A stretch of DNA of 64,000 bases from Escherichia coli (GTDB lineage Bacteria; Pseudomonadota; Gammaproteobacteria; Enterobacterales; Enterobacteriaceae). Positions 8,478 to 36,514 of the stretch are shown here, in pieces; position 1 is the first letter of the stretch; the number at the start of each line of letters is the position of its first letter. The stretch is taken from assembly GCF_002854065.1 (NCBI RefSeq), contig NZ_CP024147.1. One strand, given 5' to 3'. Below the pieces are notes generated by a model. That model did not search any database, was not told the DNA's origin, and saw only the letters and a program-made list of their open reading frames with translations. Both the position numbers and the translations under genes were made by a program.

Positions 8478-8582
8478 GAGAGGTATGAAGTCTGGACATA
8501 AACCTGAAGGCGGCATACGAGGTTTGAATAGCGTTAAGGGCAACCTGACTTAACCCCGTTCCGTCATGGTTATGCTCCTCTT

Positions 8583-8623
8583 CTGTAAATATCCTGGCAT
8601 TACTAATGCCAGGATATTTACAG
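8583..8623. terminator. perfect 18-bp-arm palindrome (ctgtaaatatcctggcat / atgccaggatatttacag) between convergent ykgG and ykgH; putative bidirectional terminator
   Basis: Read directly from sequence. Confidence 0.5.
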
Positions 8624-8718
8624 TGAAAAAGACAGGCATCCATTCCTGAAAACGGGTTCCCTTCCCGGTCATTGTCACTTCAGCTTTATACAGGCACTCT
8701 CTATCAGAATGCTGTTTA

Positions 8719-9387: not shown

Positions 9388-9583
9388 AATATATCCAGAA
9401 AATAAAACCTGTCGCAGATAAGGTTGTATTAATAGTCTGTATCAGGAATGTTCGGGGTAAATATCAGCAAAAAACCAGCATCATGAATACTGGATATGAA
9501 GCATGAGAGTTACCCCTATGTTTTATATAACGATTCTGTCCCCATACCTGGAACGGTAACTCTCAATCTGATCGGTTCCTGAG

Positions 9584-11272: not shown

Positions 11273-11285
11273 ATAAACCTCCTGG

Positions 11286-12758: not shown

Positions 12759-12771
12759 CACGTCTCCTCGG

Positions 12772-13359
12772 TTAATCGGTGGGTAAATGCTGAGTAATAA
12801 AGTGACGGGTCAGCGAGTGTGCGAGAGGTTTATCCAGCGGTTTGCCGCTCAGTGCCGCGCGCAGCCATAATCCGTCAATCAGCGCGGCAAGGCCGTAGCC
12901 CGCTTCCTGTGCCTGGTGGCGCGGCAATTCGCGGCGAAACTCGCTCACCAGATTCGACAGCAAGCGGCGGCTGCTGACCTGCTGTAAACGATAGAGCATC
13001 GGCTGATGCATACTGCTGGCCCAGAACGCCAGCCAGGCTTTCATCGCCGCACTGCTCACCTGCGTTTCATCGAAGTTTCCGCCAACAATCGCCTGTAATC
13101 GCTGCTCTGCACTGCCCTGCGGAAGTGCATGTAATCGATTCAAAACCGCGTCACGCAGCTGACTGGTGATATCGCGCATGGTTGCTTCCAGCAGACCATT
13201 TTTGTCCCTGAAATAGTGGCTGATGATCCCCGTAGAAACGCCTGCACGGCGGGCGATCTGCGCGATCGTTGCATCGTGCATGCCCACTTCATTTATTGCT
13301 TCCAGTGTGGCGTCGATCAGTTGTCTGCGCCGGATCGACTGCATCCCCAATTTGGGCAT
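12772..13359 (-). CDS. betI: TetR-family repressor BetI
   Basis: 195 aa from [14 protein letters not shown]; TetR N-terminal HTH. Confidence 0.9.
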
Positions 13360-20814: not shown

Positions 20815-22351
20815 AATAGTCATTAAACCGAATACCTATTTTGATTCTGTCTCACTGATGTCTATCTCCACGCGTGCAAATAAACTCGACGGCGTCGAGC
20901 AGGCATTTGTGGCGATGGCGACCGAAATGAATAAAGGCGTGCTGAAGAATTTAGGACTGCTGACGCCGGAGCTGGAGCAGGCGAAAAACGGCGACCTGAT
21001 GATTGTCATCAATGGTAAATCGGGTGCGGACAATGAGCAGTTGCTGGCGGAGATTGAAGAACTGTTCAACACCAAAGCGCAAAGCGGCTCGCACGAGGCG
21101 CGTTACGCCACTATTGCCAGCGCCAAAAAGCATATCCCGGAAAGTAACCTGGCGGTGATTTCGGTCAACGGTCTGTTTGCCGCTCGCGAAGCGCGTCAGG
21201 CGCTGCAAAACGATCTCAACGTGATGCTGTTTTCCGATAACGTCTCAGTTGAAGATGAACTGGCGCTCAAGCAACTGGCTCACGAAAAAGGGCTGCTGAT
21301 GATGGGGCCAGACTGTGGCACGGCGATTATCAACGGCGCGGCGCTCTGTTTTGGTAACGCCGTGCGTCGCGGCAACATCGGTATTGTTGGCGCATCCGGC
21401 ACCGGCAGCCAGGAGCTGAGCGTCCGCATTCATGAATTTGGTGGCGGCGTTTCACAACTGATTGGCACCGGCGGGCGCGACCTGAGCGAGAAAATCGGCG
21501 GCCTGATGATGCTCGACGCCATCGGGATGCTGGAAAACGATCCGCAAACTGAAATTATCGCGCTGATTTCAAAACCTCCCGCGCCTGCGGTGGCCCGTAA
21601 AGTGCTGGAACGCGCCCGCGCCTGCCGCAAGCCGGTGGTGGTCTGCTTCCTCGGTCGTGGCGAAACGCCGGTTGACGAGCAGGGGCTACAGTTTGCTCGC
21701 GGCAGCAAAGAAGCGGCGCTAAAAGCGGTGATGCTCTCCGGCGTGAAACAGGAAAATCTCGACCTGCATACGCTTAACCAGCCGTTGATTGCGGATGTGC
21801 GTGCGCGTCTGCAACCCCAGCAGAAATACATTCGTGGCCTGTTCTGCGGCGGCACGCTGTGCGACGAAACCATGTTCGCGGTGATGGAAAAACACGGCGA
21901 TGTCTACAGCAACATTCAGCCCGATCCGGAATTCCGCCTGAAAGATATCAACCGCAGCATCAAACACACCTTCCTCGACTTTGGCGATGACGACTTCACC
22001 AACGGCAAGCCGCATCCAATGATTGACCCCACCAACCGCATCAGTCGCTTGATCGAAGAGGCGCGCGATCCAGAAGTGGCGGTGATCGTGATGGATTTTG
22101 TGCTCGGATTTGGATCGCATGAAGATCCGGTCGGCTCCACCATCGAGGCGATCAAAGAAGCGAAAGCGATCGCCGCTGCCGAAGGACGCGAGTTGATCAT
22201 TCTCGCCTATGTGCTGGGTACCGATCTTGATACGCCATCGTTAGAACAACAAAGCCAGATGCTGCTTGATGCCGGAGTGATTCTGGCGAGCAGCAGCACC
22301 AATACCGGATTGCTGGCGCGTGAATTTATCTGCAAAGGGGAGGAAGCCTGA
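20804..22351 (+). CDS. yahF: FdrA-like acyl-CoA synthetase / succinyl-CoA-synthetase-alpha-like protein YahF
   Basis: 515 aa; CoA-binding-like glycine-rich segments. Confidence 0.8.
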   Translation: MSVKIVIKPNTYFDSVSLMSISTRANKLDGVEQAFVAMATEMNKGVLKNLGLLTPELEQAKNGDLMIVINGKSGADNEQLLAEIEELFNTKAQSGSHEARYATIASAKKHIPESNLAVISVNGLFAAREARQALQNDLNVMLFSDNVSVEDELALKQLAHEKGLLMMGPDCGTAIINGAALCFGNAVRRGNIGIVGASGTGSQELSVRIHEFGGGVSQLIGTGGRDLSEKIGGLMMLDAIGMLENDPQTEIIALISKPPAPAVARKVLERARACRKPVVVCFLGRGETPVDEQGLQFARGSKEAALKAVMLSGVKQENLDLHTLNQPLIADVRARLQPQQKYIRGLFCGGTLCDETMFAVMEKHGDVYSNIQPDPEFRLKDINRSIKHTFLDFGDDDFTNGKPHPMIDPTNRISRLIEEARDPEVAVIVMDFVLGFGSHEDPVGSTIEAIKEAKAIAAAEGRELIILAYVLGTDLDTPSLEQQSQMLLDAGVILASSSTNTGLLAREFICKGEEA

Positions 22352-23757
22352 TGAGCCAGTCACTGTTTAGCCAACCATTGAACGTTATTAACGTCGGCAT
22401 CGCCATGTTTAGCGATGACCTGAAAAAGCAGCATGTAGAAGTGACTCAACTCGACTGGACGCCGCCGGGGCAGGGCAATATGCAGGTGGTGCAGGCGCTG
22501 GATAACATTGCCGATTCGCCGCTGGCAGACAAAATCGCCGCCGCTAACCAGCAGGCGCTGGAGCGCATTATCCAGTCGCATCCGGTGCTGATTGGTTTTG
22601 ATCAGGCGATTAACGTGGTGCCGGGCATGACGCCGAAAACCATTCTTCACGCCGGGCCGCCGATCACCTGGGAAAAAATGTGCGGCGCGATGAAAGGCGC
22701 GGTCACCGGAGCGCTGGTGTTCGAAGGACTGGCGAAAGATCTCGACGAGGCGGCTGAACTGGCGGCTTCCGGGGAGATCACCTTCTCGCCGTGTCACGAG
22801 CACGACTGCGTGGGATCGATGGCGGGTGTTACCTCGGCCTCGATGTTTATGCACATCGTAAAAAACAAAACCTACGGCAACATCGCTTATACCAACATGA
22901 GCGAGCAGATGGCGAAGATTTTGCGTATGGGCGCTAACGACCAGAGCGTGATTGACCGCCTGAACTGGATGCGTGATGTGCAGGGACCAATACTGCGCGA
23001 CGCGATGAAAATTATCGGCGAAATCGATCTGCGCTTAATGCTGGCGCAGGCGCTGCATATGGGCGATGAGTGCCATAACCGCAATAACGCCGGGACGACG
23101 CTGCTGATTCAGGCGCTGACGCCGGGGATCATTCAGGCAGGTTATTCCGTCGAGCAACAGCGCGAAGTGTTTGAGTTTGTCGCCAGCAGCGACTACTTCT
23201 CCGGCCCGACGTGGATGGCGATGTGTAAAGCGGCGATGGATGCGGCGCACGGCATCGAATACAGCACCGTGGTCACCACCATGGCGCGTAACGGCGTCGA
23301 GTTCGGCCTGCGGGTCAGCGGATTACCGGGGCAATGGTTTACCGGTCCGGCGCAGCAGGTCATCGGCCCGATGTTTGCCGGTTATAAGCCGGAAGATTCG
23401 GGGCTGGATATCGGCGACAGTGCCATCACCGAAACCTACGGTATTGGCGGATTTGCCATGGCGACCGCGCCTGCAATCGTCGCGCTGGTGGGTGGCACGG
23501 TGGAAGAGGCTATCGATTTCTCCCGTCAGATGCGCGAAATCACCCTTGGCGAAAACCCCAACGTCACCATTCCGCTGCTTGGTTTTATGGGCGTGCCGTT
23601 GGCAATCGACATCACCCGCGTGGGTAGCAGCGGCATTCTGCCGGTGATCAACACCGCCATCGCCCATAAAGATGCGGGCGTCGGCATGATTGGCGCGGGC
23701 ATTGTGCATCCACCTTTTGCCTGCTTCGAGAAAGCCATTCTTGGTTACGGCGTCTGA
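22351..23757 (+). CDS. yahG: DUF1116 protein YahG (YlbE paralogue)
   Basis: 468-aa ORF, start overlaps yahF stop (ATGA). Confidence 0.75.
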   Translation: MSQSLFSQPLNVINVGIAMFSDDLKKQHVEVTQLDWTPPGQGNMQVVQALDNIADSPLADKIAAANQQALERIIQSHPVLIGFDQAINVVPGMTPKTILHAGPPITWEKMCGAMKGAVTGALVFEGLAKDLDEAAELAASGEITFSPCHEHDCVGSMAGVTSASMFMHIVKNKTYGNIAYTNMSEQMAKILRMGANDQSVIDRLNWMRDVQGPILRDAMKIIGEIDLRLMLAQALHMGDECHNRNNAGTTLLIQALTPGIIQAGYSVEQQREVFEFVASSDYFSGPTWMAMCKAAMDAAHGIEYSTVVTTMARNGVEFGLRVSGLPGQWFTGPAQQVIGPMFAGYKPEDSGLDIGDSAITETYGIGGFAMATAPAIVALVGGTVEEAIDFSRQMREITLGENPNVTIPLLGFMGVPLAIDITRVGSSGILPVINTAIAHKDAGVGMIGAGIVHPPFACFEKAILGYGV

Positions 23758-23764
23758 CCTACAT

Positions 23765-23860
23765 GTTCATGCCGGATGCGGCGTGAACGCCTTATCCGGC
23801 CTACGAATGGCGCGAGAATTGTAGGCCTGATAAGCGTAGCGCATCAGGCAGTCTGGCGTT
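23765..23860. repeat. REP (repetitive extragenic palindromic) elements after yahG
   Basis: gccggatgcggcgtgaacgccttatccggcctac and gtaggcctgataagcgtagcgcatcaggca are canonical REP sequences. Confidence 0.85.
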
Positions 23861-23899
23861 GGTCATAACTCCATCACCCTCTGTAGCGGACATAACAAC

Positions 23900-24850
23900 A
23901 TGAAAGAACTTGTGGTCGTTGCCATTGGTGGCAACAGCATTATCAAGGATAACGCCAGCCAGTCGATTGAGCATCAGGCGGAGGCGGTGAAAGCCGTGGC
24001 CGATACGGTGCTGGAAATGCTGGCTTCCGATTACGACATTGTGCTGACCCACGGCAACGGGCCGCAGGTCGGGCTGGATTTACGCCGTGCGGAGATTGCC
24101 CACGAGCGCGAAGGGCTGCCTTTAACGCCGCTGGCGAACTGTGTGGCGGATACGCAAGGCGGCATCGGCTATCTGATCCAACAGGCGCTGAACAACCGAC
24201 TGGCGCGTCACGGTGAGAAAAAAGCCGTCACCGTGGTGACTCAGGTGGAAGTGGATAAAAACGATCCAGGGTTTGCTCATCCCACCAAGCCCATCGGCGC
24301 ATTCTTCAGTGAAAGTCAGCGTGACGAATTACAAAAGGCGAACCCTGACTGGCGTTTTGTTGAAGATGCCGGACGGGGCTATCGCCGCGTGGTCGCCTCG
24401 CCGGAACCGAAACGTATTGTCGAAGCACCGGCCATTAAGGCGCTGATCCAGCAAGGCTTTGTGGTGATTGGCGCGGGCGGTGGTGGTATTCCGGTGGTGC
24501 GCACTGAAGCGGGAGATTACCAAAGCGTGGACGCGGTTATCGACAAAGATCTCTCTACCGCGCTGTTGGCCCGTGAAATTCACGCCGACATTCTGGTGAT
24601 CACCACTGGCGTCGAAAAAGTGTGTATTCATTTTGGCAAACCGCAGCAGCAGGCGCTGGATCGCGTAGATATTGCCACCATGACCCGCTATATGCAGGAA
24701 GGGCATTTCCCGCCTGGCAGCATGTTGCCAAAAATCATCGCGAGCCTGACGTTCCTGGAACAGGGCGGCAAAGAAGTGATTATCACCACGCCGGAATGCC
24801 TGCCCGCGGCGCTGCGCGGTGAAACGGGCACCCATATTATTAAAACGTGA
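23900..24850 (+). CDS. yahI: carbamate kinase-like protein YahI
   Basis: 316 aa; amino-acid kinase family motifs (VVAIGGN, THGNGPQVG). Confidence 0.85.
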   Translation: MKELVVVAIGGNSIIKDNASQSIEHQAEAVKAVADTVLEMLASDYDIVLTHGNGPQVGLDLRRAEIAHEREGLPLTPLANCVADTQGGIGYLIQQALNNRLARHGEKKAVTVVTQVEVDKNDPGFAHPTKPIGAFFSESQRDELQKANPDWRFVEDAGRGYRRVVASPEPKRIVEAPAIKALIQQGFVVIGAGGGGIPVVRTEAGDYQSVDAVIDKDLSTALLAREIHADILVITTGVEKVCIHFGKPQQQALDRVDIATMTRYMQEGHFPPGSMLPKIIASLTFLEQGGKEVIITTPECLPAALRGETGTHIIKT

Positions 24851-24859
24851 GGACGTAAG

Positions 24860-26242
24860 ATGAAAGAAAGCAATAGCCGCCGTGAGTTTTTGAGCCAGAG
24901 CGGTAAGATGGTCACCGCCGCCGCGTTGTTTGGTACGTCTGTGCCGCTCGCCCATGCGGCGGTAGCTGGCAACCTAAACTGCGACGCGAATAACACCATG
25001 AAAATCACTGACCCGCACTACTATCTCGACAACGTGCTGCTGGAAACCGGTTTTGACTACGAAAACGGTGTGGCGGTGTAGACCCGCACGGCGCGCCAGA
25101 CCGTGGAGATTCAGAACGGTAAAATTGTTGCGCTGCGCGAGAACAAGCAGCATCCGGACGCCACGCTGCCGCACTATGACGCTGGCGGTAAGCTGATGCT
25201 GCCCACCACCCGCGACATGCATATTCATCTCGACAAAACCTTTTACGGCGGGCCGTGGCGCTCACTCAATCGTCCGGCTGGCACCACCATTCAGGACATG
25301 ATTAAGCTCGAGCAGAAAATGCTGCCGGAACTGCAACCGTATACTCAGGAACGGGCGGAAAAACTGATCGATTTATTGCAGTCGAAAGGCACTACCATTG
25401 CCCGCAGCCACTGCAATATCGAACCGGTTTCCGGCCTGAAAAATCTGCAAAATTTGCAGGCGGTGCTGGCGCGACGTCAGGCGGGCTTCGAGTGTGAAAT
25501 TGTCGCCTTCCCGCAGCACGGTTTGCTGCTGTCGAAATCGGAACCCTTAATGCGCGAAGCAATGCAGGCAGGGGCGCATTACGTTGGCGGGCTGGACCCA
25601 ACCAGTGTTGATGGCGCGATGGAAAAATCCCTCGACACCATGTTCCAGATTGCGCTGGACTACGACAAAGGCGTCGATATTCACCTGCACGAAACCACTC
25701 CGGCAGGCGTGGCGGCCATCAATTATATGGTTGAAACAGTGGAGAAAACGCCGCAACTGAAGGGCAAACTGACCATCAGCCATGCCTTTGCGCTGGCAAC
25801 ACTCAACGAGCAACAGGTAGATGAACTGGCTAACCGGATGGTGGTGCAGCAAATTTCTATCGCCTCGACGGTGCCGATTGGTACGCTGCATATGCCGCTC
25901 AAACAGTTACACGACAAAGGCGTAAAAGTGATGACTGGCACTGACAGCGTTATCGACCACTGGTCGCCTTATGGTCTGGGCGACATGCTGGAAAAAGCCA
26001 ATCTCTACGCGCAGCTCTATATTCGTCCTAACGAACAGAACCTCTCCCGTTCGCTGTTTCTAGCCACTGGCGATGTATTGCCGCTGAATGAAAAAGGCGA
26101 GCGTGTATGGCCAAAAGCGCAGGATGACGCCAGCTTTGTGCTGGTGGACGCCTCCTGTTCCGCCGAGGCGGTGGCGCGTATCTCGCCGAGAACCGCAACG
26201 TTCCATAAAGGGCAACTGGTGTGGGGGAGTGTGGCAGGTTGA
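24860..26242 (+). pseudogene. yahJ: yahJ, Tat-signal amidohydrolase/deaminase, interrupted by in-frame TAG at 25079-25081
   Basis: ORF 24860..25081 encodes a twin-arginine signal peptide (SRREFLSQSG...AHA); same frame continues after the TAG into the amidohydrolase domain ORF 25103..26242 (HIHLDKT metal-binding motif). Confidence 0.8.
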
Positions 26243-26540
26243 TGCGCATTTGAAACGCCTGCAACGGTGAATAGTAAGAGATTTAAGCCCCAGGGAGTGG
26301 GGCGGGAATGGTTTGCTAATGAATGATCCTGAACTTTATAATCTCCCGGCATAATTTCCAGGGGATTATTTGAGAGAAATACACAAAAGTGAGTTTTAAC
26401 AAAGGTATTTATCAGGCCATAAATGTGACCTGCTTCGGATAAAAAAGATTCAGTATCGAAAAACCAATGATATTCTTGCTGATGGTTACCAACAGTAATT
26501 AAGATGTGATTTGTTTTTCCGTAATCGCGAAAATATTCTC

Positions 26541-26951
26541 ATGACCATAAAAGAAAAAATCTTACAAAAATATCCCCATGCTTCCTTTTGTACTTTTGGC
26601 GATTCTGCAGCGTTGGCCGATCACCTCGCAACGTTGATTGCGACTGGTGTTAAAACAGCTTCCTGTGGTTCGCTGGCAGGATGTATTGAAGACAACGCAT
26701 TTCCGATGATTGGTGAGTATAAGATTGTAGAAAATAGCCGTGGTGAGCCTGTATGTGTTATCAGAGTGATTGGCCTGCATTTACTGCGCTTTTCTGATGT
26801 CACCGCGGAGCTTGCCCGTAAGGAAGGTGAAGGTGACCTCAGTCTTGAATATTGGCGTAATGAACACCGTCGTTTTTTCCAGGCAGAAGGAAGCTATTCA
26901 CCAGAAATGGACGTTATCTTTGAAGAATATGCCCTTATTGACGTTGTGTAG
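26541..26951 (+). CDS. ASCH-domain protein
   Basis: ORF track 26511..26951; start likely MTIKEKI; small beta-barrel ASCH-like sequence; annotation tentative. Confidence 0.55.
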   Translation: MTIKEKILQKYPHASFCTFGDSAALADHLATLIATGVKTASCGSLAGCIEDNAFPMIGEYKIVENSRGEPVCVIRVIGLHLLRFSDVTAELARKEGEGDLSLEYWRNEHRRFFQAEGSYSPEMDVIFEEYALIDVV

Positions 26952-27201
26952 ATAACTATTTATATACGCGAAATAAACTCACACACATAAAATATCGCTA
27001 ATTTTGTTTATTTTGCTATTTTTTACGTGATGAATGTCACACTTATTGTTGCTGCCCGTTTTGTCCATATTTATAACCATATTTTTAATAGCTGCCTGAA
27101 ATAGGGCTGTTTATTCTGCATAAAAATATTCGAAAATTCTTATTCTCTCCAGCGCGCTAATTTGGGCGAACACTTCCTGACTACCCTGCAATGAGGCTGA
27201 A

Positions 27202-28188
27202 ATGATGAATAAACGTTTTGTTATCAATATGGTGTCTTCGCTGTTATTAGGCGCTGCGCTAATTTCTGCGCCGCTCCAGGCAGCGGAAAAAGTCGTGGTG
27301 AATATTTCTAAAGTCGATGGTATGCCGTGGTTTAATCGCATGGGCGAAGGTGTGGTTGAGGCGGGTAAAGCCTTTGGTGTTAATGCGTCACAGGTGGGGC
27401 CTTCAAGTACTGATGCTCCGCAACAGGTTAAAATTATTGAGGATTTAATCGCCCGTAAGGTTAATGCAATTACTATCGTGCCAAACGATGCCAACGTGCT
27501 GGAACCGGTATTCAAAAAAGCGCGAGATGCCGGAATTGTGGTTCTGACCAACGAATCCCCCGGTCAGCCAAGTGCTAACTGGGATATCGAAATCATTGAT
27601 AACGAAAAATTTGCCGCTGAATATGTTGAGCATATGGCGAAACGCATGGGGGGCAAGGGCGGCTATGTGATTTACGTGGGTAGTTTGACCGTGCCGCAGC
27701 ATAACTTATGGGCTGACTTGCTGGTGAAATACCAGAAAGAGCATTACCCGGATATGCATGAAGTTACCCGCCGCATGCCGGTTGCCGAGAGTGTGGATGA
27801 CTCACGTCGTACCACACTGGACCTGATGAAAACCTATCCTGACTTAAAAGCGGTTGTCTCCTTTGGTTCAAACGGTCCGATTGGCGCGGGACGTGCGGTG
27901 AAAGAGAAACGGGCGAAAAATAAAGTCGCAGTCTATGGCATGATGATCCCTTCACAGGCGGCATCACTGATTAAAAGTGGTGATATCACCGAAGGGATTA
28001 CTTACGATCCGGCCTCTGCAGGTTACGCACTCGCAGCCGTCGCCAGCACGTTGCTGAAGGGTGAAGAGATCAAACCTGGATTAGAAATGCAGAATCTGGG
28101 TAAGGCCGACGTAGATATGGATAAGCGAATTATCCGTTTCCATAAGGTATTACTGGTCAACAAAGACAATATCGACTCACTTTATTAA
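27202..28188 (+). CDS. periplasmic sugar-binding protein of ABC transporter (LsrB/RbsB-like type I PBP)
   Basis: 328 aa with signal peptide (…ISAPLQAAEK); C-terminus …LLVNKDNIDSLY resembles LsrB …FNKDNIDKYDF (recall). Confidence 0.8.
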   Translation: MMNKRFVINMVSSLLLGAALISAPLQAAEKVVVNISKVDGMPWFNRMGEGVVEAGKAFGVNASQVGPSSTDAPQQVKIIEDLIARKVNAITIVPNDANVLEPVFKKARDAGIVVLTNESPGQPSANWDIEIIDNEKFAAEYVEHMAKRMGGKGGYVIYVGSLTVPQHNLWADLLVKYQKEHYPDMHEVTRRMPVAESVDDSRRTTLDLMKTYPDLKAVVSFGSNGPIGAGRAVKEKRAKNKVAVYGMMIPSQAASLIKSGDITEGITYDPASAGYALAAVASTLLKGEEIKPGLEMQNLGKADVDMDKRIIRFHKVLLVNKDNIDSLY

Positions 28189-28236
28189 TCCATTTCTTCG
28201 GGGCGAAAGCCCCGATTCTTATTGCCAGGGGATGTT

Positions 28237-29721
28237 ATGGAAACCTTCCTTTCCCTTCGTCATATCAACAAAACGTTTCATGCCACGCGAGCGCTGCGCG
28301 ATGTTTCTCTCGACTTTATGTCGGGTGAAGTGCACTGCCTTGCCGGGCAAAACGGCTGTGGTAAATCGACGTTGATCAAAATTATGTCCGGTGTTTATCG
28401 CCCGGATGAGGGAGCGGAAATTACGCTTGGTGGGAAAAAATGGTCAAAGCTGACACCCGCCGCTTCGGTGGCGCAGGGGATTCAGGTGATTTATCAGGAC
28501 CTCTCTTTATTTCCTAACCTGAGTGTCTGGGAGAATATCGCCGTGAATCACTATCACCACGGTCTGTTTGTTAACCGACGTCGTCTGCGTGAGGTGGCGC
28601 AGGCGGCAATGACCAGTATTAACGTCACATTGCCACTGGATACGCTCGTTTCTGAGCTTTCAATTGCCCGCTGTCAGCTGGTGGCAATTTGCCGTGCACT
28701 GGCGCAGGACGCACGGTTGATCGTGATGGATGAACCAACCGCTTCGCTGACCCATCAGGAAGTGCAAGGGTTATTACAGGTGGTGCATCAATTGCGGGAA
28801 CGCGGGATCTGCGTGGTCTTCGTCAGTCATCGTCTGGAAGAAGTGATGGAAGTTTCCGACCGTATTTCAGTGCTGAAAGATGGTGAGCTGGTCGGGACTT
28901 TTCCGGCTGCAGAGATGACCACAAAACAACTCGGTTTCCTGATGACCGGCCAGGAGTTTGAATATCAGGTGCGAGAGTTGTGGCAGGGAAAATCCAGCAC
29001 CCCGGTGCTGGAGGTGCGTAATTTAAGTCGTCATGGGGAATATCTAAATATTAACTTGCGGGTGGAAGCGGGCGAAGTGGTATCGATTGTTGGCCTGCTT
29101 GGTGCGGGGCGCACGGAATTATGTCTGAGTCTGTTTGGTATGACCCGACCGGATGCTGGCGAGATCCTCATCAACGGCCAGCCGGTTACACTGCATAGTA
29201 ACCAGGACGCCATCCGCCACGGTATTGGTTATGTTTCGGAAGATCGCATGTCGCGCGGTTTGGTGATGGCGCAATCTATTGAAGACAACATCATTAGCAC
29301 TGTTTTTCACAAGGTAAAAGATCGCTTCGGCTTTCTGAGTGAAGCTAAAGTGCGTGACCTGGTGGACAGGCTAATCAAGGCATTGACCATCAAAGTCTCT
29401 GATCCTCATCTCCCGGTGAATACGCTTTCTGGTGGTAACGCGCAGCGAGTATCGATCGCCAAATGGCTGGCGATTGGGCCACGACTGTTGATTCTCGATA
29501 GCCCGACAGTCGGTGTTGATATCGCCAACAAAGCAGGAATATACGGCATTATCAGCGATCTGGCGGCTCATGGCATTGCGGTATTGATGATCTGCGATGA
29601 AATTGAAGAAGCGTGGTATCAAAGCCACCGGATTTTGGTAATGCAAAAAGGTCAGATCACCCATAGCTTCCTGCCTGACAGCAGTTCTCAGGCCAGGATT
29701 GCGGAGGTGGTAAATGGCTGA
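28237..29721 (+). CDS. ABC transporter ATP-binding protein with duplicated ABC domains (RbsA/LsrA-like)
   Basis: ORF track 28222..29721; start at METFLSL; Walker A GQNGCGKST, signature LSGGNAQR, second degenerate ABC domain. Confidence 0.9.
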   Translation: METFLSLRHINKTFHATRALRDVSLDFMSGEVHCLAGQNGCGKSTLIKIMSGVYRPDEGAEITLGGKKWSKLTPAASVAQGIQVIYQDLSLFPNLSVWENIAVNHYHHGLFVNRRRLREVAQAAMTSINVTLPLDTLVSELSIARCQLVAICRALAQDARLIVMDEPTASLTHQEVQGLLQVVHQLRERGICVVFVSHRLEEVMEVSDRISVLKDGELVGTFPAAEMTTKQLGFLMTGQEFEYQVRELWQGKSSTPVLEVRNLSRHGEYLNINLRVEAGEVVSIVGLLGAGRTELCLSLFGMTRPDAGEILINGQPVTLHSNQDAIRHGIGYVSEDRMSRGLVMAQSIEDNIISTVFHKVKDRFGFLSEAKVRDLVDRLIKALTIKVSDPHLPVNTLSGGNAQRVSIAKWLAIGPRLLILDSPTVGVDIANKAGIYGIISDLAAHGIAVLMICDEIEEAWYQSHRILVMQKGQITHSFLPDSSSQARIAEVVNG

Positions 29722-30685
29722 ACTGAAAAAACGCCATGAATTCTGGCTGGCATTACTGATTGTGGTGCTGTTTGTTGGCCTTGCCTGGCGCAGCGACGAG
29801 TTTCTGACATTCGGTAATTTGTACGATCTCGCCAATAACTATGCCATGTTGACTATTCTCGCCTGTGGTTTGTTTGTGGTGTTGATTTCCGGTGGAATTG
29901 ATATTTCGTTTCCAGCAATGACCATCATTGCGCAATACGGCATGGTGCTGTTGCTGCAAAAAATTGGTGGCAACTTCGCTGTCGCGTTTGCACTGGCGGG
30001 CTGCATCGGCATTTTACTTGGCTTAATTAACGCCTTACTGGTTAATCGCCTACGGGTGCCTTCTATCATCATCACTATCTCGACGCTGAATATTTTCTAT
30101 GGCCTGCTGTTATGGTTGAGTAAAGGTGTGTGGCTGTACGACTTTCCGCCGTGGTTTGAGCAGGGGGTTATGTTGTTCAAGTACACCGATGCTGATGGCT
30201 ATGACTATGGCCTTGGTCTGCCGCTGATCGCCATGATTACGGTGGTGCTGCTAACAGCGTTTATCATGAATTTCACCAGTGTAGGGCGCAAAATTTATGC
30301 CCTTGGCGGGAACCGCGAATCAGCCAGTCGCATCGGCTTTAGCGTGCTGAAACTGCAACTTTTCGTCTATGGCTATATGGGATTGATGTCTGGCGCTGCG
30401 GGTGTAGTGCAGTCGTGGACGGTGATGACTGTCGCCCCCGATTCTCTTCTGGGTTATGAGCTGACAGTACTGGCTGCGGTGGTGCTTGGCGGCACTAGTT
30501 TGCTCGGCGGGCGCGGCACGTTAACCGGTACTTTGCTCGGCGTGGTGTTGTTGGCAGTGATGCAAAACGGGCTAAATTTATTGGGAGTCTCGTCTTACTG
30601 GCAAACATTGATCACCGGCATCATCATCGTTGCCAGCATTAGTGCCACGGCGTGGAGTCAGCATCAGAACCGGAGTCTGCTATGA
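29714..30685 (+). CDS. ABC transporter permease (RbsC/LsrC-like)
   Basis: 323-aa multi-TM ORF overlapping ATPase stop. Confidence 0.85.
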   Translation: MAELKKRHEFWLALLIVVLFVGLAWRSDEFLTFGNLYDLANNYAMLTILACGLFVVLISGGIDISFPAMTIIAQYGMVLLLQKIGGNFAVAFALAGCIGILLGLINALLVNRLRVPSIIITISTLNIFYGLLLWLSKGVWLYDFPPWFEQGVMLFKYTDADGYDYGLGLPLIAMITVVLLTAFIMNFTSVGRKIYALGGNRESASRIGFSVLKLQLFVYGYMGLMSGAAGVVQSWTVMTVAPDSLLGYELTVLAAVVLGGTSLLGGRGTLTGTLLGVVLLAVMQNGLNLLGVSSYWQTLITGIIIVASISATAWSQHQNRSLL

Positions 30686-31638
30686 AAAAATCGTGGCGTA
30701 ATAACGTTGAGTTTTACTTGATCGGCCTGCTGGTGCTAACTGTTGCCGCGTTCAGCATTACTATGCCGGAGATTTTCTGGTCGATAAGTAATTTCCAGTC
30801 CGTCGCTTCGCAAATGCCCGTGCTGGGCATTCTGGCGTTGGCTATGGCGGTGACCATGCTTTGCGGTGGCATTAACTTGTCAATTATAGCCACTGCTAAC
30901 GCCTGTTCACTGGTGATGGCGTGGGTGGCGACTCAGTATCCACCGGGTATTGCTACGGTTGTCGCTACGTTACTGGCGGGCGCTGGCGCGGCGGTGATAA
31001 TCGGTTTATGTAACGGCGTATTGATTGCTGGTATTCGAGTGTCGCCAATTCTTGCAACGCTTGGGATGATGACGTTGCTCAAAGGGATAAATATTCTGGT
31101 GACAGGTGGTAGCGCCATTGCCAATTATCCCTCATGGGTGCTGTGGTTGAATCATGCGCAATGGTTCGGTATTCCGCTACCGATGTGGTTGTTTGCCGCA
31201 GTGGCACTGGGGCTGTGGATATTGCTGGAGAAAACGCCGCTCGGTAAAGCCATTTACCTGATTGGGTCTAACGAACGAGCAACACTTTACTCCGGCATTA
31301 ACACTCGTCGGGTGCTGATTTGGGTTTATGTCATTTCCGCCTTGCTTTGTGCGGTAGCGGCATTTTTGATGATGTCGAAACTCAACTCGGCTAAGGCCTC
31401 TTATGGCGAATCGTACTTGCTGGTGTCAATCCTCGCGGCAGTACTCGGCGGGGTTAATCCGGACGGCGGCAGCGGGCGGATAATTGGTATGGTGCTGGCG
31501 CTGTTTCTTCTGCAAATTATTGAAAGCGGCTTCAATATTCTCGGTATAAGCCCCTACCTGACGATGGCCTTATGGGGAACGTTGCTGCTCTGTTTCATTC
31601 AGGCTCGCGGCATGTTGGGGCTGGATCGGGTGGTTTAA
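30682..31638 (+). CDS. ABC transporter permease (RbsC/LsrD-like)
   Basis: ORF track 30652..31638; start at MKKSWRNN (ATGA overlap with upstream permease stop). Confidence 0.85.
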   Translation: MKKSWRNNVEFYLIGLLVLTVAAFSITMPEIFWSISNFQSVASQMPVLGILALAMAVTMLCGGINLSIIATANACSLVMAWVATQYPPGIATVVATLLAGAGAAVIIGLCNGVLIAGIRVSPILATLGMMTLLKGINILVTGGSAIANYPSWVLWLNHAQWFGIPLPMWLFAAVALGLWILLEKTPLGKAIYLIGSNERATLYSGINTRRVLIWVYVISALLCAVAAFLMMSKLNSAKASYGESYLLVSILAAVLGGVNPDGGSGRIIGMVLALFLLQIIESGFNILGISPYLTMALWGTLLLCFIQARGMLGLDRVV

Positions 31639-31724
31639 ATATTGGCTATATTCAATGGACGCGTTTTGCCGCGATGACATATCAGGCGTCGCCAAATACA
31701 CATAGCTAATCAGGAGTAAACACA

Positions 31725-32774
31725 ATGAAGATCAAAGCTGTTGGTGCATATTCCGCTAAACAACCACTTGAACCGATGGATATCACCCGGCGTGAACCGG
31801 GACCGAATGATGTCAAAATCGAAATCGCTTACTGTGGCGTCTGCCATTCCGATCTCCACCAGGTCCGTTCCGAGTGGGCGGGGACGGTTTATCCCTGCGT
31901 GCCGGGTCATGAAATTGTGGGGCGTGTGGTAGCCGTTGGTGATCAGGTAAAAAAATATGCGCCGGGCGATCTGGTCGGTGTCGGCTGCATTGTCGACAGT
32001 TGTAAGCATTGCGAAGAGTGTGAAGACGGGCTGGAAAACTACTGTGATCACATGACCGGCACCTATAACTCGCCAACGCCGGACGAACCGGGCCATACTC
32101 TGGGCGGCTACTCACAACAGATCGTCGTTCATGAGCGATATGTTCTGCGTATTCGTCACCCGCAAGAGCAGCTGGCGGCGGTGGCTCCTTTGTTGTGTGC
32201 AGGGATCACCACGTACTCGCCGCTACGTTACTGGCAGGCCGGGCCGGGTAAAAAAGTGGGCGTGGTCGGCATCGGCGGTCTGGGACATATGGGGATTAAG
32301 CTGGCCCACGCGATGGGGGCACATGTGGTGGCATTTACCACTTCTGAGGCAAAACGCGAAGCGGCAAAAGCCCTGGGGGCCGATGAAGTTGTTAACTCAC
32401 GCAATGCCGATGAGATGGCGGCTCATCTGAAGAGTTTCGATTTCATTTTGAATACAGTAGCTGCGCCACATAATCTCGACGATTTTACCACCTTGCTGAA
32501 GCGTGATGGCACCATGACGCTGGTTGGTGCGCCTGCGACACCGCATAAATCGCCGGAAGTTTTCAACCTGATCATGAAACGCCGTGCGATAGCCGGTTCT
32601 ATGATTGGCGGCATTCCAGAAACTCAGGAGATGCTCGATTTTTGCGCCGAACATGGCATCGTGGCTGATATAGAGATGATTCGGGCCGATCAAATTAATG
32701 AAGCCTATGAGCGAATGCTGCGCGGTGATGTGAAATATCGTTTTGTTATCGATAATCGCACACTAACAGACTGA
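31725..32774 (+). CDS. yahK: NADPH-dependent aldehyde reductase YahK (zinc-type alcohol dehydrogenase)
   Basis: 349 aa; Zn-ADH motifs GHEIVG, CGVCHSD, GIGGLGH. Confidence 0.9.
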   Translation: MKIKAVGAYSAKQPLEPMDITRREPGPNDVKIEIAYCGVCHSDLHQVRSEWAGTVYPCVPGHEIVGRVVAVGDQVKKYAPGDLVGVGCIVDSCKHCEECEDGLENYCDHMTGTYNSPTPDEPGHTLGGYSQQIVVHERYVLRIRHPQEQLAAVAPLLCAGITTYSPLRYWQAGPGKKVGVVGIGGLGHMGIKLAHAMGAHVVAFTTSEAKREAAKALGADEVVNSRNADEMAAHLKSFDFILNTVAAPHNLDDFTTLLKRDGTMTLVGAPATPHKSPEVFNLIMKRRAIAGSMIGGIPETQEMLDFCAEHGIVADIEMIRADQINEAYERMLRGDVKYRFVIDNRTLTD

Positions 32775-32812
32775 AAAAATTAATAAATACCCTGTGATTT
32801 AACATATTAACT

Positions 32813-32849
32813 TCGCTCTCCACTTAACTTTTTAGTTAAGGAGAGCGAA
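32813..32849 (+). terminator. imperfect inverted repeat after yahK (cgctctcc...ggagagcg); putative terminator
   Basis: Read from sequence; no clear U-tract. Confidence 0.35.
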
Positions 32850-33528
32850 ATAATATCAAAGTAGCAGTAAAACCTATAACGTAAATTCAAATTGTTAAAT
32901 TAACTCCCTCCAGTACACAATACTTCTCACGTTAGTTATGAGCGATTTCTGATAGTGCCTGGTTTAATTAGAGCTTTATTATCTGCGACGTTTATTTTTA
33001 TTTAAGAGAGATCGCGATGATATCATTAAAAGCTCCGCGCAATAATTTGATGCCATATACGCAACAAAGCATACTTAATACGGTTAAAAACAATCAGTTA
33101 CCAGAGGATATCAAAAGCTCCCTGGTTTCCTGTGTCGATATATTCAAGGTTTTGATTAAACAATATTATGATTATCCTTATGATTGTCGTGATGATTTAG
33201 TCGATGACGACAAACTCATTCATCTCATGGCTGCCGTACGAGACTGTGAGTGGTCAGACGATAACGCACTCACCATAAATGTGCAGTTTAATGATTTCCC
33301 TGGATTTTATGACTGGATGGATTACCCTGATCACCCGGTTAAGTTTGTTTTTCGCATACTTGAAAATCAAAAAGGGACAGTTTGGGTATATGACCAGGAT
33401 GATGCGTTTCTTGATATTAAAGCAAATGTGCAGGCTGGACGCTTTACCGGGCTTAAGAAATTAGTGCAGTTTATCAATTCAGTGCGAACAGATTGCAAAT
33501 GTATTCTTCTTGAACACCATATGCCTTT

Positions 33529-33533
33529 GCTGA
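33529..33533. repeat. IS2 target-site duplication, left copy (GCTGA)
   Basis: Identical 5-mer immediately flanks both IS2 termini. Confidence 0.85.
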
Positions 33534-33544
33534 TGGATTTGCCC

Positions 33545-34450
33545 CTATATTTCCAGACATCTGTTATCACTTAACCCATTACAAGCCCGCTGCCGCAGAT
33601 ATTCCCGTGGCGAGCGATAACCCAGCGCACTATGCGGATGCCATTCGTTATAATGCTCGAACGCCTCTGCAAGGTTCTTTGCTGCCGTTAACCCGTCTGG
33701 TTTGGGCATGATACTGATGTAGTCACGCTTTATCGTTTTCACGAAGCTCTCTGCTATTCCGTTACTCTCCGGACTCCGCACCGCCGTGTTCTTCGGTTCA
33801 AGTCCCAACATCCGGGCGAACTGGCGTGTTTCATTAGCCCGGTAGCATGAACCATTATCCGTCAGCCACTCCACTGGAGACGACGGAAGATCGTTGCCGA
33901 AGCGGCGTTCCACCGCTCCCAGCATGACGTCCTGTACTGTTTCACTGTTGAAGCCGCCGGTAGTGACCGCCCAGTGCAGTGCCTCACGATCACAGCAGTC
34001 CAGCGCGAACGTGACACGCAGTCTCTCTCCGTTATCACAGCAGAACTCGAACCCGTCAGAGCACCATCGCTGATTGCTTTCTTTCACGGCCACTCTGCCT
34101 GTATGTGCCCGTTTCGATGGCGGTACAGCAGGTTTTCGCTCAAGCAACAGCGCATTCTGGCGCATGATCCGGTAAACACGTTTGGCATTGATCGCAGGCA
34201 TACCATCAAGTTCTGCCTGTCTGCGAAGCAGCGCCCATACCCGACGATAACCATACGTGGGCAGCTCTCCGATAACATGGTGTATACGGAGAAGCACATC
34301 CGTATCATCAGTGTGACGACTGCGGCGGCCATCCATCCAGTCATCGGTTCGTCTGAGAATGACGTGCAACTGCGCACGCGACACCCGGAGACAACGGCTG
34401 ACTAAGCTTACTCCCCATCCCCGGGCAATAAGGGCGCGTGCGCTATCCAC
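33545..34450 (-). CDS. insD: IS2 transposase OrfB (InsD), DDE integrase domain
   Basis: 301-aa ORF inside the IS2 element with IS3-family transposase catalytic domain. Confidence 0.9.
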
Positions 34451-34773
34451 TTTTTTGCCCGTCCATATTCAACGGCTTCTTTGAGGAGTTCATTTTCCAT
34501 CGTTTTCTTGCCGAGCAGGCGCTGGAGTTCTTTAATCTGCTTCATGGCGGCAGCAAGTTCAGAGGCAGGAACAACCTGTTCTCCGGCGGCGACAGCAGTA
34601 AGACTTCCTTCCTGGTATTGCTTACGCCAGAGAAATAACTGGCTGGCTGCTACACCATGTTGCCGGGCAACGAGGGAGACCGTCATCCCCGGTTCAAAGC
34701 TCTGCTGAACAATTGCGATCTTTTCCTGTGTGGTACGCCGTCTGCGTTTCTCCGGCCCTAAGACATCAATCAT
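34408..34773 (-). CDS. insC: IS2 OrfA (InsC), HTH transposase N-terminal protein
   Basis: ORF track 34408..34818; start at [18 protein letters not shown] (121 aa); overlaps insD in -1 frame as expected for IS3-family frameshift. Confidence 0.9.
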
Positions 34774-34864
34774 CTGTTCTCCAATGACTAGTCTAAAAAC
34801 TAGTATTAAGACTATCACTTATTTAAGTGATATTGGTTGTCTGGAGATTCAGGGGGCCAGTCTA

Positions 34865-34869
34865 GCTGA
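34865..34869. repeat. IS2 target-site duplication, right copy (GCTGA)
   Basis: See left copy. Confidence 0.85.
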
Positions 34870-35580
34870 GACTTTTCCCTAAAGGGAAAGAGTGTATGCA
34901 TGTGGAAAAATGGCTTCGCGAAATGTCGTCTATTCCGGAGACAGACGCGCCCATTAAGCAGGCGCTTGCGCATGGATTATTATTACACTTAAAAAATATC
35001 TACCCTGTTTTTCCTGAATCACTGGTGATGTTATTGCTCTCTGTTCTGGACGTAAAAACATACAGAGATGATGCACGATTAAATGAATGGATATCTAATA
35101 GAGTGCAGGAATTAGGTGACAGATATTATCCTGTAAATAAGCACGTTAAAATTCGCTACACTCTTTAGTTCAGAAAGGGTTCCACCTGCAAGTTGTTATT
35201 CCACCAGAGAGTGAATCGCAATGCAGGTAATCATTTCATCTGTATATCTGTATGCCAACTGGCATTCCATCTCTTTTTTCGCCGATATTTTGTTGTGATC
35301 GGCGACACTTCGCTTAAAAAAGCACCAGTAGTGGTTTCGCAGCCATGCGGTGTATAAAAAATGATCTCATGCAGATGTTTTGTGAATGTGTGGGTTGACA
35401 TTCATATGAAAAAAATCATAATTCCATCATGTTTGTGTGGGGTCTTTTCTGTATCTTACGCATCGCACTCAAGCCTGACAGAAAATATGCTGTAAGGCTC
35501 ATATCAAAAACCGCCATTAGCTCATCAGGAAGAGCAGACGACAACCAGGATTGTTGTATGGTACGGGGTTCGAGGCCTCG

Positions 35581-35826
35581 ATGGCGGTCCAACTTTTCAA
35601 AACTCTTCTGAATCAGATCCCCTTATTATCATCCCTGCAAAGTGGAACATTGCCATTGTTTGGCTATTCAGGACGGGTCAGACCAATGAAAAAAGCCCAC
35701 ACAGGGGAGAGTGGGCTGAAATGGGAAGCTAAAGACTCAAGTAAACTTATCGGAAATAAGGACCACGCATTACGGGGGCTATCATCGCCGATGGTCGGGA
35801 TTCGGCAAATCAGGTTGATTACGTAG
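35581..35826 (+). CDS. yahM: small uncharacterised protein YahM
   Basis: ORF track 35551..35826; start guessed at MAVQLFK (81 aa); identification from position and length recall only. Confidence 0.5.
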   Translation: MAVQLFKTLLNQIPLLSSLQSGTLPLFGYSGRVRPMKKAHTGESGLKWEAKDSSKLIGNKDHALRGLSSPMVGIRQIRLIT

Positions 35827-35842
35827 AGAGTAAATTATCTGC

Positions 35843-36514
35843 TCACCGCTGCGTCACCCCTTCGTAAATCAGGCGTAGCGCGAATACACCAATAATTGCA
35901 CCAATAACCCGACTGGCAACGCGTTGCATACGCCCATAAGCATGACGCACAGCGGGCAAAGAAAACGCCTGACTAAGAAAAACTCGCCAGATAATTGATG
36001 CGAGCACAATCCCCGCCCAGGCCATTAAACGTGCCCATGTTGGTGTTTCGGCATTTAATGTTACTGAGAAAATACTAATAAAAAATAAAACGGTTTGTGG
36101 GTTAGAGAGATCGGTAATTAATCCACGGCGAAAAAAGACATACCAGGGGGCGTTAATCGGTTGTTGTAGTGTGCTCATTTGCGGTGTTGACTGGCGGCGC
36201 ATGCTGCACCACGCAAACCATAAGAGATAAGCGCCGCCGACGATTCTGATAAGCGAAAAAATCTCCTCACACTGCGTAATTAGCGTTGCAAGACCAAACA
36301 AACCCAACCCGGAATAAAATGCATCGCCCAGCGCCACGCCCAGTCCGGTCAGCACTCCTGCGCGTCGACCGGAAGCCAGGCTGGTTTGTACTACCACAAA
36401 AAGATTGGCTCCCGGATTAAAAAAAGTAATCACGAACAGTCCTACGGTCAGGTAAACGGCATGCAAAGGATCCATAGTGATTTCATCCATAAATAAGTGA
36501 ACTAACTGCATCAT
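35843..36514 (-). CDS. yahN: LysE/RhtB-family amino-acid exporter YahN
   Basis: 223-aa multi-TM ORF. Confidence 0.8.
   Translation of the reverse strand: MMQLVHLFMDEITMDPLHAVYLTVGLFVITFFNPGANLFVVVQTSLASGRRAGVLTGLGVALGDAFYSGLGLFGLATLITQCEEIFSLIRIVGGAYLLWFAWCSMRRQSTPQMSTLQQPINAPWYVFFRRGLITDLSNPQTVLFFISIFSVTLNAETPTWARLMAWAGIVLASIIWRVFLSQAFSLPAVRHAYGRMQRVASRVIGAIIGVFALRLIYEGVTQR

Follow-up and report, generated by a model that had tools for sequence, protein, structure and literature searches.

The block between yahJ and yahK in the 64,000-nucleotide stretch of Escherichia coli DNA analysed here (hereafter the window) contains aauABCD (27202–31638), the operon of the published importer Aau; the block is thus already known. 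Overall, we hold with a probability of about 0.93 that this Aau operon has the published function, would be controlled directly by AraC at an I1–I2-type site through ancestral wiring, stands beside an independent ASCH-domain gene, and forms part of an old locus deleted in K-12. Aau ('accessory L-arabinose uptake') is an ABC importer encoded by Z0415-9 in O-island 17 (Cottam et al., Nat Commun 2024, PMC11127945; 2025, PMC12307932). Since both papers together already give a structure, binding affinities, the regulation and results in vivo, the finding as stated adds nothing new. What goes beyond these papers is a predicted CRP plus AraC tandem site, a linkage to araC or araBA in many other genera, and a two-deletion allele shared among strains.

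The aauABCD operon and its published biology

The interval from the nucleotide after the yahJ stop codon to that before the yahK start is exactly 26243–31724, and ORF calling found five genes in it, all on the plus strand (Table 1). The ASCH-domain gene and the four importer genes are therefore present where the preliminary description placed them. The overlaps that it ascribed to the importer genes exist between aauB and aauC (8 nt) and between aauC and aauD (4 nt), whereas aauA and aauB are separated by 48 nt. The ASCH-domain gene and aauA lie 250 nt apart, yahK begins 86 bp past aauD, and RefSeq starts aauA at the second Met (27205). Within the block, neither the ORFs nor NCBIfam profiles nor the RefSeq annotation revealed a regulator, kinase or isomerase gene, in agreement with the same description.

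Table 1 Features of the block and of the K-12-type allele (window coordinates).
Feature	Position	Strand	Remarks
First missing segment, K-12/CFT073/E2348-69 allele	26304-26901		takes out most of the ASCH-domain gene
Sigma-70-like promoter match TTGCTA-18-TATAAT	26313-26342	+	~200 bp upstream of the ASCH-domain gene
ASCH-domain gene	26541-26951	+	136 aa; Pfam PF04266
Predicted CRP site CGTGATGAATGTCACA	27026-27041	+	9/10 core positions match; the I1-like half-site follows after 11 bp
Second missing segment, K-12-type allele	27046-31566		takes away the predicted AraC site, aauA, aauB, aauC and most of aauD; ends accurate to ~10 bp
Predicted AraC activator site	27053-27090	+	I1-like + I2-like direct repeats, 21 bp apart
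I1-like half-site TGCCCGTTTTGTCCATA	27053-27069	+	4-bp gap before the I2-like half-site
I2-like half-site TAACCATATTTTTAATA	27074-27090	+	second direct repeat of the predicted AraC site
aauA (Z0415), periplasmic solute-binding protein	27202-28188	+	328 aa
aauB (Z0416-7), fused two-domain ABC ATPase	28237-29721	+	494 aa, intact
aauC (Z0418), permease	29714-30685	+	323 aa
aauD (Z0419), permease	30682-31638	+	318 aa

The earlier assignment to a CUT2-type importer was borne out by NCBIfam alignments, in which AauA aligned with RhaS/LsrB/RbsB models, AauB end to end with the double ATPases AraG, XylG, RbsA and LsrA, and AauC and AauD with RbsC, AraH and LsrCD. The layout, too, is that of CUT2, with two ABC domains in a single polypeptide, two homologous permeases of ~320 aa, and a cluster-B type binding protein. 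The best NCBIfam matches of AauB were AraG/YtfR/XylG-type double ATPases, covered at full length but all below equivalog cut-offs. In a PDB search, AauA matched 9I1M_A over its full length with 327 of 328 residues identical (713 bits), the sole difference being D200 here for V in 9I1M, at a position outside the ligand pocket. The identity to the Klebsiella structure 3D02 was of the 94% class, and a literature search on that structure found nothing. Compared with an O157:H7 copy, AauB differs at three amino acids, AauC is identical, and AauD differs at one. The present locus agrees with published Aau (Z0415-Z0419) in its place, its gene order and its neighbours yahJ and yahK, with the same set of binding protein, fused ATPase and two permeases, the same lack of an adjoining kinase or regulator, and the same absence of the segment from K-12 (OI-17). 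It differs in that aauB is free of internal stops here, whereas a copy from a laboratory strain is interrupted by a premature stop codon (position 259; PMC11127945).

The preliminary description had regarded substrate and control as open and had named orthology to a characterised transporter as an outcome that would count against it; the binding protein is the ortholog of such a transporter, AauA of PDB 9I1M, for which affinities and AraC-dependent induction have been published (PMC11127945, PMC12307932). By isothermal titration calorimetry (ITC), AauA binds D-ribulose with a Kd of 1.98 μM and L-arabinose with one of 598 μM, and in the crystal α-D-ribulose is sandwiched by Trp43 and His167 (PMC12307932). 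All six published D-ribulose contacts (K37, W43, E118, H167, E196 and S223) are kept in the present AauA. Imported D-ribulose requires AraB (L-ribulokinase), which phosphorylates it for entry into the pentose phosphate pathway (PMC12307932). In competition in the mouse gut, Aau gives EHEC an advantage of ~100-fold, and its presence is correlated with that of the LEE island (PMC11127945). For the gut, the assignment of a physiological substrate is based on two papers from one laboratory (PMC11127945, PMC12307932). According to the published experiments, AauA captures α-D-ribulose in the periplasm while binding L-arabinose weakly, the permeases AauC and AauD together with the double ATPase AauB import the sugar, and D-ribulose, once inside, is phosphorylated by AraB and passed to the pentose phosphate pathway. 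Since induction depends on AraC and phosphorylation on AraB, the regulator and the kinase act in trans, from araC and araB elsewhere on the chromosome.

A predicted AraC/CRP promoter of aau

A reporter comprising ~300 bp upstream of Z0415 responded to L-arabinose as the only inducer, and this response was abolished in ΔaraC and restored by araC in trans (PMC11127945). D-Ribulose is no inducer of aau (Cottam et al. 2024/2025, PMC11127945, PMC12307932). The transcription of aau requires AraC together with L-arabinose. Inside the reporter region, we found a predicted AraC activator site of the I1–I2 type preceded by a predicted CRP site (Table 1). A search for single AraC half-sites (TAGC-N7-TCCATA, ≤2 mismatches) was uninformative, with 27 matches against 44 expected in the window and no significance on its own, and a tandem score with 21-bp spacing was used in its place. 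The tandem site upstream of aauA scored 15/20, and only two such sites occur on both strands of the 64-kb window (P ~0.002–0.005 per 300 bp). The CRP-site match is one of only three with ≤1 mismatch in the 64 kb, and in the promoters of many orthologues a GTGA-N6-TCACA-like element keeps this distance to the I1-like site.

The order of CRP, I1 and I2 is the same as in the K-12 araBAD promoter, and both promoters have 17-bp direct-repeat half-sites 21 bp apart. The two differ in the predicted gap between CRP and I1, which is 11 bp at aau and 13 bp at araBAD, and in the A-box of the I1-like site of aau, which is degenerate, with TGCC where TAGC is expected. In a promoter/terminator scan of 26200–27300, no terminator appeared, and the sequence past the I2-like site was free of sigma-70 matches. 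From these sequence features we infer that AraC may act directly at the tandem site, just downstream of CRP, as it does in the araBAD promoter; the papers give genetic dependence only, to which the present prediction adds a concrete cis-element for the AraC/CRP control of aau.

Probable loss from K-12 and homologues in other genera

As the preliminary description stated, the block is absent from K-12: MG1655 matches only the flanks and two short remnants, whereas at least 80% of window positions 25800–32200 is held by 2209 of 5426 complete E. coli genomes. K-12 retains 26151–26303 and 26902–26973, with remnants of the promoter and of the 3′ ends of the ASCH-domain gene and aauD. The remnant ending in '...ATCACACTTA', half of the CRP site, is joined to the window from 31567 onward, leaving the last 72 nt of aauD as an annotated pseudogene fragment. 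The deletion junctions are identical in K-12, CFT073 and E2348/69, strains of phylogroups A and B2. Moreover, a divergent Escherichia genome, with flanks of 87–90% nucleotide identity, has the locus in the same place, at 90% identity. Judging from the shared two-deletion scar, the 'island' would be a long-standing Escherichia locus, which K-12 and many phylogroup A/B2 strains appear to have lost via one allele; this is evidence that the O-island was ancestral and was deleted from K-12 rather than inserted in O157. A mobile element was considered for the block and rejected, as neither an integrase, a tRNA nor flanking repeats were found in it and the K-12 scars favour deletion.

In 24 species loci, the transporter has an AraC equivalog (366.9 bits against a cut-off of 208) ≤5 kb away, directly upstream in 20 of them, and araB/araA or araFGH adjoin the transporter in Providencia, Budviciaceae and Chelonobacter. 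The contact residues KWEHES were invariant in 79 of 79 homologues. Because clustering of the flanking genes put AraB orthologues and Rbl-type pentulose kinases together, they were split by identity to E. coli AraB, which was 60–72% for true AraB orthologues and 24–27% for the Rbl-type kinases.

The Rbl system of Citrobacter rodentium (RblABCD-RblK-RblI; ROD_24811-61) has the same four-gene transporter, with ~60% identity to Aau and D-ribulose as its ligand, and all 20 of the Rbl-type homologues that were compared keep the six ligand contacts of Aau. Rbl-type loci differ from Aau in having their own FGGY pentulose kinase (TIGR01315, 703 bits) and KpsF-like isomerase (SIS protein) directly downstream; in the present locus, aauD is followed by yahK, with no dedicated FGGY D-ribulokinase or KpsF-like isomerase. 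Unlike Aau, Rbl is induced by D-ribulose metabolism and not by L-arabinose. The promoters differ likewise, a plus-strand tandem scoring ≥14 upstream of the binding-protein gene being present in 51 of 58 Aau-type species loci and in only 1 of 20 Rbl-type loci. The AraC wiring of Aau would thus appear to be ancestral to the transporter family. We lean, by a small degree, toward the broader reading that Aau-type transporters are an ancestral, direct AraC/CRP regulon in γ-proteobacteria and that the E. coli locus was inherited vertically, with its AraC wiring kept once it had parted from the ara genes, and was later lost through one two-deletion allele, rather than acquired as an EHEC island, because the predicted CRP–I1–I2 promoter is conserved, linkage to araC, araBA or araFGH is frequent, and the D-ribulose pocket is invariant. 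If so, aau is no horizontally gained 'pathogenicity island' of EHEC that hijacked the arabinose machinery.

Alternative substrates and the ASCH-domain neighbour

RefSeq (PGAP) names AauA an 'autoinducer 2 ABC transporter substrate-binding protein', and the preliminary description took LsrB as its closest relative and raised a furanose or AI-2-like ligand, so that the operon might be a second AI-2 uptake system importing the quorum signal as furanosyl R-THMF. Six AI-2-binding residues of LsrB (K35, D116, D166, Q167, P220 and A222) are reportedly conserved, as attributed to Pereira et al. 2009. Upon alignment with LsrB 5GTA, AauA keeps K35 and shows D116E, D166Q, Q167H, P220F and A222S, so that one of six is identical, although its contact residues do fall in LsrB's alignment columns. 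The kinship with LsrB proved only approximate: NCBIfam gave AauA 136.7 bits with the RhaS rhamnose-binding model TIGR02637 (cut-off, 342) and 111.4 bits with the LsrB equivalog (cut-off, 384), both far under the cut-offs, and LsrB structures, though among the nearer characterised PDB relatives (80–88 bits, the best at 88), ranked after 9I1M, 3D02 and 5BRA. No lsrK, lsrR, lsrF or lsrG was found in 22000–36000. LsrB/LsrACD (PDB 1TJY, 5GTA) thus share with Aau the binding-protein fold, the CUT2 layout and the binding-site columns, their ligand being a substituted furanose, but differ in five of six contacts, in gene context and in regulation, which for aau is by L-arabinose and AraC. The guess of a furanose came close, the crystal ligand being α-D-ribulose, a five-membered-ring ketose chemically near R-THMF; AI-2 was not among the ligands tested in the Aau papers, and the crystal structure and ITC establish micromolar D-ribulose binding (PMC12307932). 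We consider AI-2 uptake highly improbable and the RefSeq name misleading. The original 2024 reading, in which Aau is primarily an L-arabinose scavenger and D-ribulose binding is incidental, is unlikely as well, if less so. It accords with the exclusive induction by L-arabinose via AraC, with the partial rescue of ΔaraE growth on L-arabinose by Aau overexpression (PMC11127945), and with the orthologues that lie within ara clusters beside araC, araBA or araFGH in several genera. Against it, the affinity of AauA for L-arabinose is >200-fold weaker (PMC12307932), deletion of aau causes no growth defect on L-arabinose (PMC11127945), and Rbl-type homologues, D-ribulose-specific in C. rodentium, have the same six contacts.

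A joint module of the ASCH-domain gene and the transporter, for example taking up an N-acylated or otherwise modified compound for processing by an ASCH amidohydrolase, is likewise very hard to credit. In its favour, the two lie side by side in one orientation and are both missing from the K-12 allele, N4-acylcytosine/cytidine amidohydrolases are known among ASCH proteins, YqfB being an example (PMC6972931; preprint 10.64898/2026.02.27.708502), and yahJ upstream encodes a cytosine-deaminase-like amidohydrolase by NCBIfam. However, the 250-bp gap between them contains the predicted AraC/CRP promoter, the GC content is ~40% in the ASCH-domain gene and ~50% in aau, two separate deletions removed them in K-12, and Z0415-9 alone suffices for the published Aau phenotypes. 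Moreover, among 79 loci from species other than E. coli, none had an ASCH homologue close to the transporter, the linkage being confined to Escherichia. The ASCH-domain gene is therefore a separate transcription unit and an independent neighbour of Aau, and its treatment as one unit with the importer finds no support.

The ASCH-domain protein (RefSeq product, 'ASCH domain-containing protein') matched PF04266 over residues 27–133 (E 3.5e-22), and its PDB relatives, 1T62 and 3S9X, have no assigned function. Scans of NCBIfam, PADLOC and PHROG yielded no family for it, and the last two thus give no hint of a role in defence or in phages. The sigma-70-like match upstream (Table 1) fits 10 of 12 consensus positions and is the only one in 26200–27300, although shuffled sequences gave a mean of 2.6, making it weak evidence alone; it is possibly the predicted promoter of the ASCH-domain gene itself. 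YqfB-type N4-acylcytidine amidohydrolases have Lys, Thr and Glu as catalytic residues, together with the Arg of a GKTxxxxR octapeptide. As read from the sequence, residues G36-V-K38-T39-A-S-C-G43 contain the Lys and Thr of the ASCH octapeptide with Gly at its Arg position, and G36-V-K38-T39 resembles the GKT part of that octapeptide (preprint 10.64898/2026.02.27.708502).

Gene content and identity of the yahJ-yahK block

The interval between the yahJ stop codon (26242) and the yahK start codon (31725) is filled by five co-directional genes on the + strand (ORF listing), and the arrangement given in the preliminary description, an ASCH-domain gene plus genes for a binding protein, a double ATPase, and two permeases, was confirmed by ORFs, Pfam, and NCBIfam. 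The overlaps between genes claimed there hold for the ATPase/permease and permease/permease junctions only; the ASCH gene and the binding-protein gene are set apart by an AT-rich gap of 250 bp. All four transporter proteins aligned end to end with components of CUT2 sugar importers in NCBIfam; all of the scores fell well short of the equivalog cut-offs. ORF listing and NCBIfam revealed no gene for a regulator, kinase, or isomerase within the block, as had been noted before.

Features of the yahJ-yahK interval (window coordinates)
Feature	Position	Strand	Length	Sequence	Remarks
ASCH-domain gene	26541-26951	+	136 aa		Pfam PF04266, E 3.5e-22
Predicted CRP site	27026-27041			CGTGATGAATGTCACA	9/10 CRP core positions
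Predicted AraC half-site, I1-like	27053-27069			TGCCCGTTTTGTCCATA	11 bp downstream of predicted CRP site
Predicted AraC half-site, I2-like	27074-27090			TAACCATATTTTTAATA	4-bp gap after I1-like half-site
aauA, binding protein	27202-28188	+	328 aa		aligns with RhaS/LsrB/RbsB models (NCBIfam)
aauB, double ATPase	28237-29721	+	494 aa		aligns with AraG/YtfR/XylG/LsrA (NCBIfam)
aauC, permease	29714-30685	+	323 aa		aligns with AraH/RbsC/LsrCD (NCBIfam)
aauD, permease	30682-31638	+	318 aa		aligns with AraH/RbsC/LsrCD (NCBIfam)

The four-gene transporter is the already known Aau D-ribulose/L-arabinose importer, described as Z0415-Z0419 of O-island 17 (PMC12307932, PMC11127945). Indeed, the binding protein is identical at 327 of 328 residues to chain A of PDB 9I1M, which is AauA (Cottam et al., Nat Commun 2025; PMC12307932), and is also very close to the Klebsiella pneumoniae structural-genomics entry 3D02; all six residues contacting alpha-D-ribulose in the AauA crystal (K37, W43, E118, H167, E196, and S223; PMC12307932) are present. 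AauA binds D-ribulose with a Kd of 1.98 uM, as against 598 uM for L-arabinose (PMC12307932). L-Arabinose is the sole inducer of the aau promoter, and induction is lost in a delta-araC mutant and restored in trans (PMC11127945). D-Ribulose is phosphorylated by AraB, and its use is restricted to the presence of L-arabinose because AraC must turn on both Aau and AraB (PMC12307932). Aau carriers have a strong competitive edge in the mouse gut (PMC11127945, PMC12307932). The aauB gene, which carries a premature stop in one laboratory strain (PMC11127945), is intact in the window. Since the binding protein is orthologous to that of a characterised transporter, with published ligand and AraC control, the earlier view of substrate and control as open was wrong; part of the anatomy stands, and the central claim of an uncharacterised system falls. 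Our additions to the published work are modest, namely a predicted site for CRP and AraC upstream of aauA, the linkage of the transporter to ara clusters in other genera, and deletion-scar evidence bearing on the origin of O-island 17.

Relation of AauA to LsrB

A closest resemblance to LsrB had also been noted, which holds only roughly; the second AI-2-like uptake system considered possible from it was not supported. AauA scored 111 bits against the NCBIfam LsrB model (cut-off, 384) and higher against the RhaS model, its similarity to LsrB structures was moderate (80-88 bits), and no lsr genes were found near the aau locus in the window. The AI-2 residues of LsrB, reportedly K35, D116, D166, Q167, P220, and A222 from work of Pereira et al. 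in 2009, were mapped through a HMMER alignment of AauA to LsrB 5GTA; only K35 is identical (1/6), the others being replaced by E, Q, H, F, and S, respectively. The AauA ligand contacts occupy the same alignment columns as those of LsrB, and thus the pocket is homologous to that of LsrB but re-specified. Weak AI-2 binding is a small residual possibility. PGAP/RefSeq labels AauA (27205-28188; e.g. WP_001042108.1) 'autoinducer 2 ABC transporter substrate-binding protein'; this product name is misleading, in view of the score below the LsrB cut-off, the five differing signature residues, and the solved D-ribulose complex.

Predicted AraC control and orthologous loci

In the Aau papers (PMC11127945, PMC12307932), AraC dependence is genetic, and an AraC binding site, EMSA, and CRP analysis are absent. 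The predicted CRP site upstream of aauA is one of three CRP-core matches of that quality in the 64 kb. The I1-like and I2-like elements, likened to araI1 and araI2 of K-12 araBAD, are 17-bp direct repeats with a spacing of 21 bp, matching the AraC pattern TAGC-N7-TCCATA at 8/10 and 7/10 positions, compared with 10 and 7 for araI1 and araI2 themselves. A tandem score of >=15 occurs twice in the whole window on both strands and in 0.2-0.5% of 300-bp segments (shuffled or sampled).

When one genome per species was scanned, the four-gene transporter turned up at 79 further loci, with AauA identities of 90-92% in Klebsiella, Franconibacter, and Mangrovibacter and 65-87% in Yersinia, Providencia, Budviciaceae, Pasteurellaceae, Aeromonas, and Vibrio. 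A third group, at ~60% identity, shares the architecture of the D-ribulose locus of Citrobacter rodentium (RblABCD-RblK-RblI): genes for an FGGY pentulose kinase (TIGR01315, 703 bits) and for a KpsF-like SIS protein come directly after the transporter genes. Of the 58 Aau-type loci, 51 have a + strand AraC-like tandem (score >=14) upstream of the gene for the binding protein, in contrast to 1 of 20 Rbl-type loci, and many of the Aau-type tandems are preceded at a similar distance by a GTGA-N6-TCACA-like element. Moreover, an AraC equivalog (366.9 bits; cut-off, 208) is encoded within 5 kb in 24 loci, directly upstream in 20, with the arrangements araB ... araFGH-araC-aauABCD in Budviciaceae, aauABCD-araC-araBA in Providencia, and araC-aauABCD-araB in Chelonobacter and Testudinibacter. 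None of the six ligand-contacting residues varies among the 79 homologues. Taken together, the tandem sites, the ara-gene linkage, and the invariant contacts suggest that AraC control of the Aau-type transporters looks direct and ancestral, rather than a recent 'hijack'.

In Pasteurellaceae (L041-L060, ~6900-13000), the gene after araC-aauABCD encodes an FGGY kinase of 532 aa. This kinase resembles xylulokinase only weakly (123 bits; cut-off, 380), is not an AraB orthologue, and is possibly a separate ketopentose kinase devoted to the Aau-type transporter. SFEK01000152.1 (4748 bp), from a 'Bacteroidales bacterium' MAG bin, encodes proteins 99-100% identical to E. coli aauABCD and is almost certainly a mis-binned E. 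coli contig.

Origin of the K-12 allele and the ASCH gene

Of 5426 complete E. coli genomes searched by megablast with window 25800-32200, 2209 contain the full block, O157:H7 among them, whereas K-12 MG1655, CFT073, and E2348/69 gave three separate matches that cover only ~19% of the query. The K-12 annotation has a 75-bp pseudogene fragment immediately upstream of yahK. By direct comparison, K-12 keeps window 26151-26303, 72 bp from the 3' end of the ASCH gene (26902-26973), a decayed downstream intergenic piece terminating in a '...TCACACTTA' element, and the sequence from 31567 on, with the final 72 nt of aauD. These remnants make K-12 a two-deletion derivative lacking 26304-26901 and about 27046-31566; CFT073 and E2348/69 (phylogroup B2) share its junctions. 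In SCPM-O-B-8794, deposited as E. coli with flanking core genes 87-90% identical to the window, the ASCH 3' remnant, promoter region, aauABCD, and yahK lie at the same place with 90% identity, which indicates, as far as sequence comparison goes, that the aau locus is old and vertically inherited in Escherichia. Thus, the block is absent from K-12 as previously stated, remnants apart, but is not an inserted island.

The ASCH gene is a unit separate from aau, an independent neighbour, in view of the promoter gap, its GC content (~40%, vs ~50% for aau), the absence of an ASCH gene near the transporter at any non-Escherichia locus scanned, and its removal in K-12 by a separate deletion. Its protein matched no NCBIfam, PADLOC, or PHROG family, and its closest solved relatives, 1T62 and 3S9X, are both uncharacterised. 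ASCH proteins such as YqfB are N4-acylcytidine amidohydrolases (PMC6972931), and tRNA ac4C deacetylation by 19 ASCH proteins has been described (2026 preprint 10.64898/2026.02.27.708502). In the window protein, the Lys and Thr of the 'GKT' motif are present and the Arg is missing; an activity like that of YqfB is possible.

Some further differences were seen nearby. In SCPM-O-B-8794 (L030 1-8000 vs window 617-26852), window ~17585 is joined directly to ~26852, and hence the segment up to yahJ, including the ASCH 5' part, is missing, yet aauABCD and yahK are kept. The window yahJ (24860-26242) has an in-frame TAG at 25079-25081, where K-12 and O157:H7 have CAG (Gln74); this Tat-signal amidohydrolase gene is probably a pseudogene in the source strain, or restarts at 25103. 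For yahK of E2348/69 (L085 1164-1888), the annotated start lies 46 nt downstream of that in K-12 (L001 2318) and CFT073, with nearly identical upstream sequence, probably an annotation difference. Downstream of yahK, overlapping ORFs of 136 and 301 aa (33545-34818, - strand) resemble an IS3-family orfA/orfB transposase pair and adjoin a low-GC 185-aa ORF (33017-33574).
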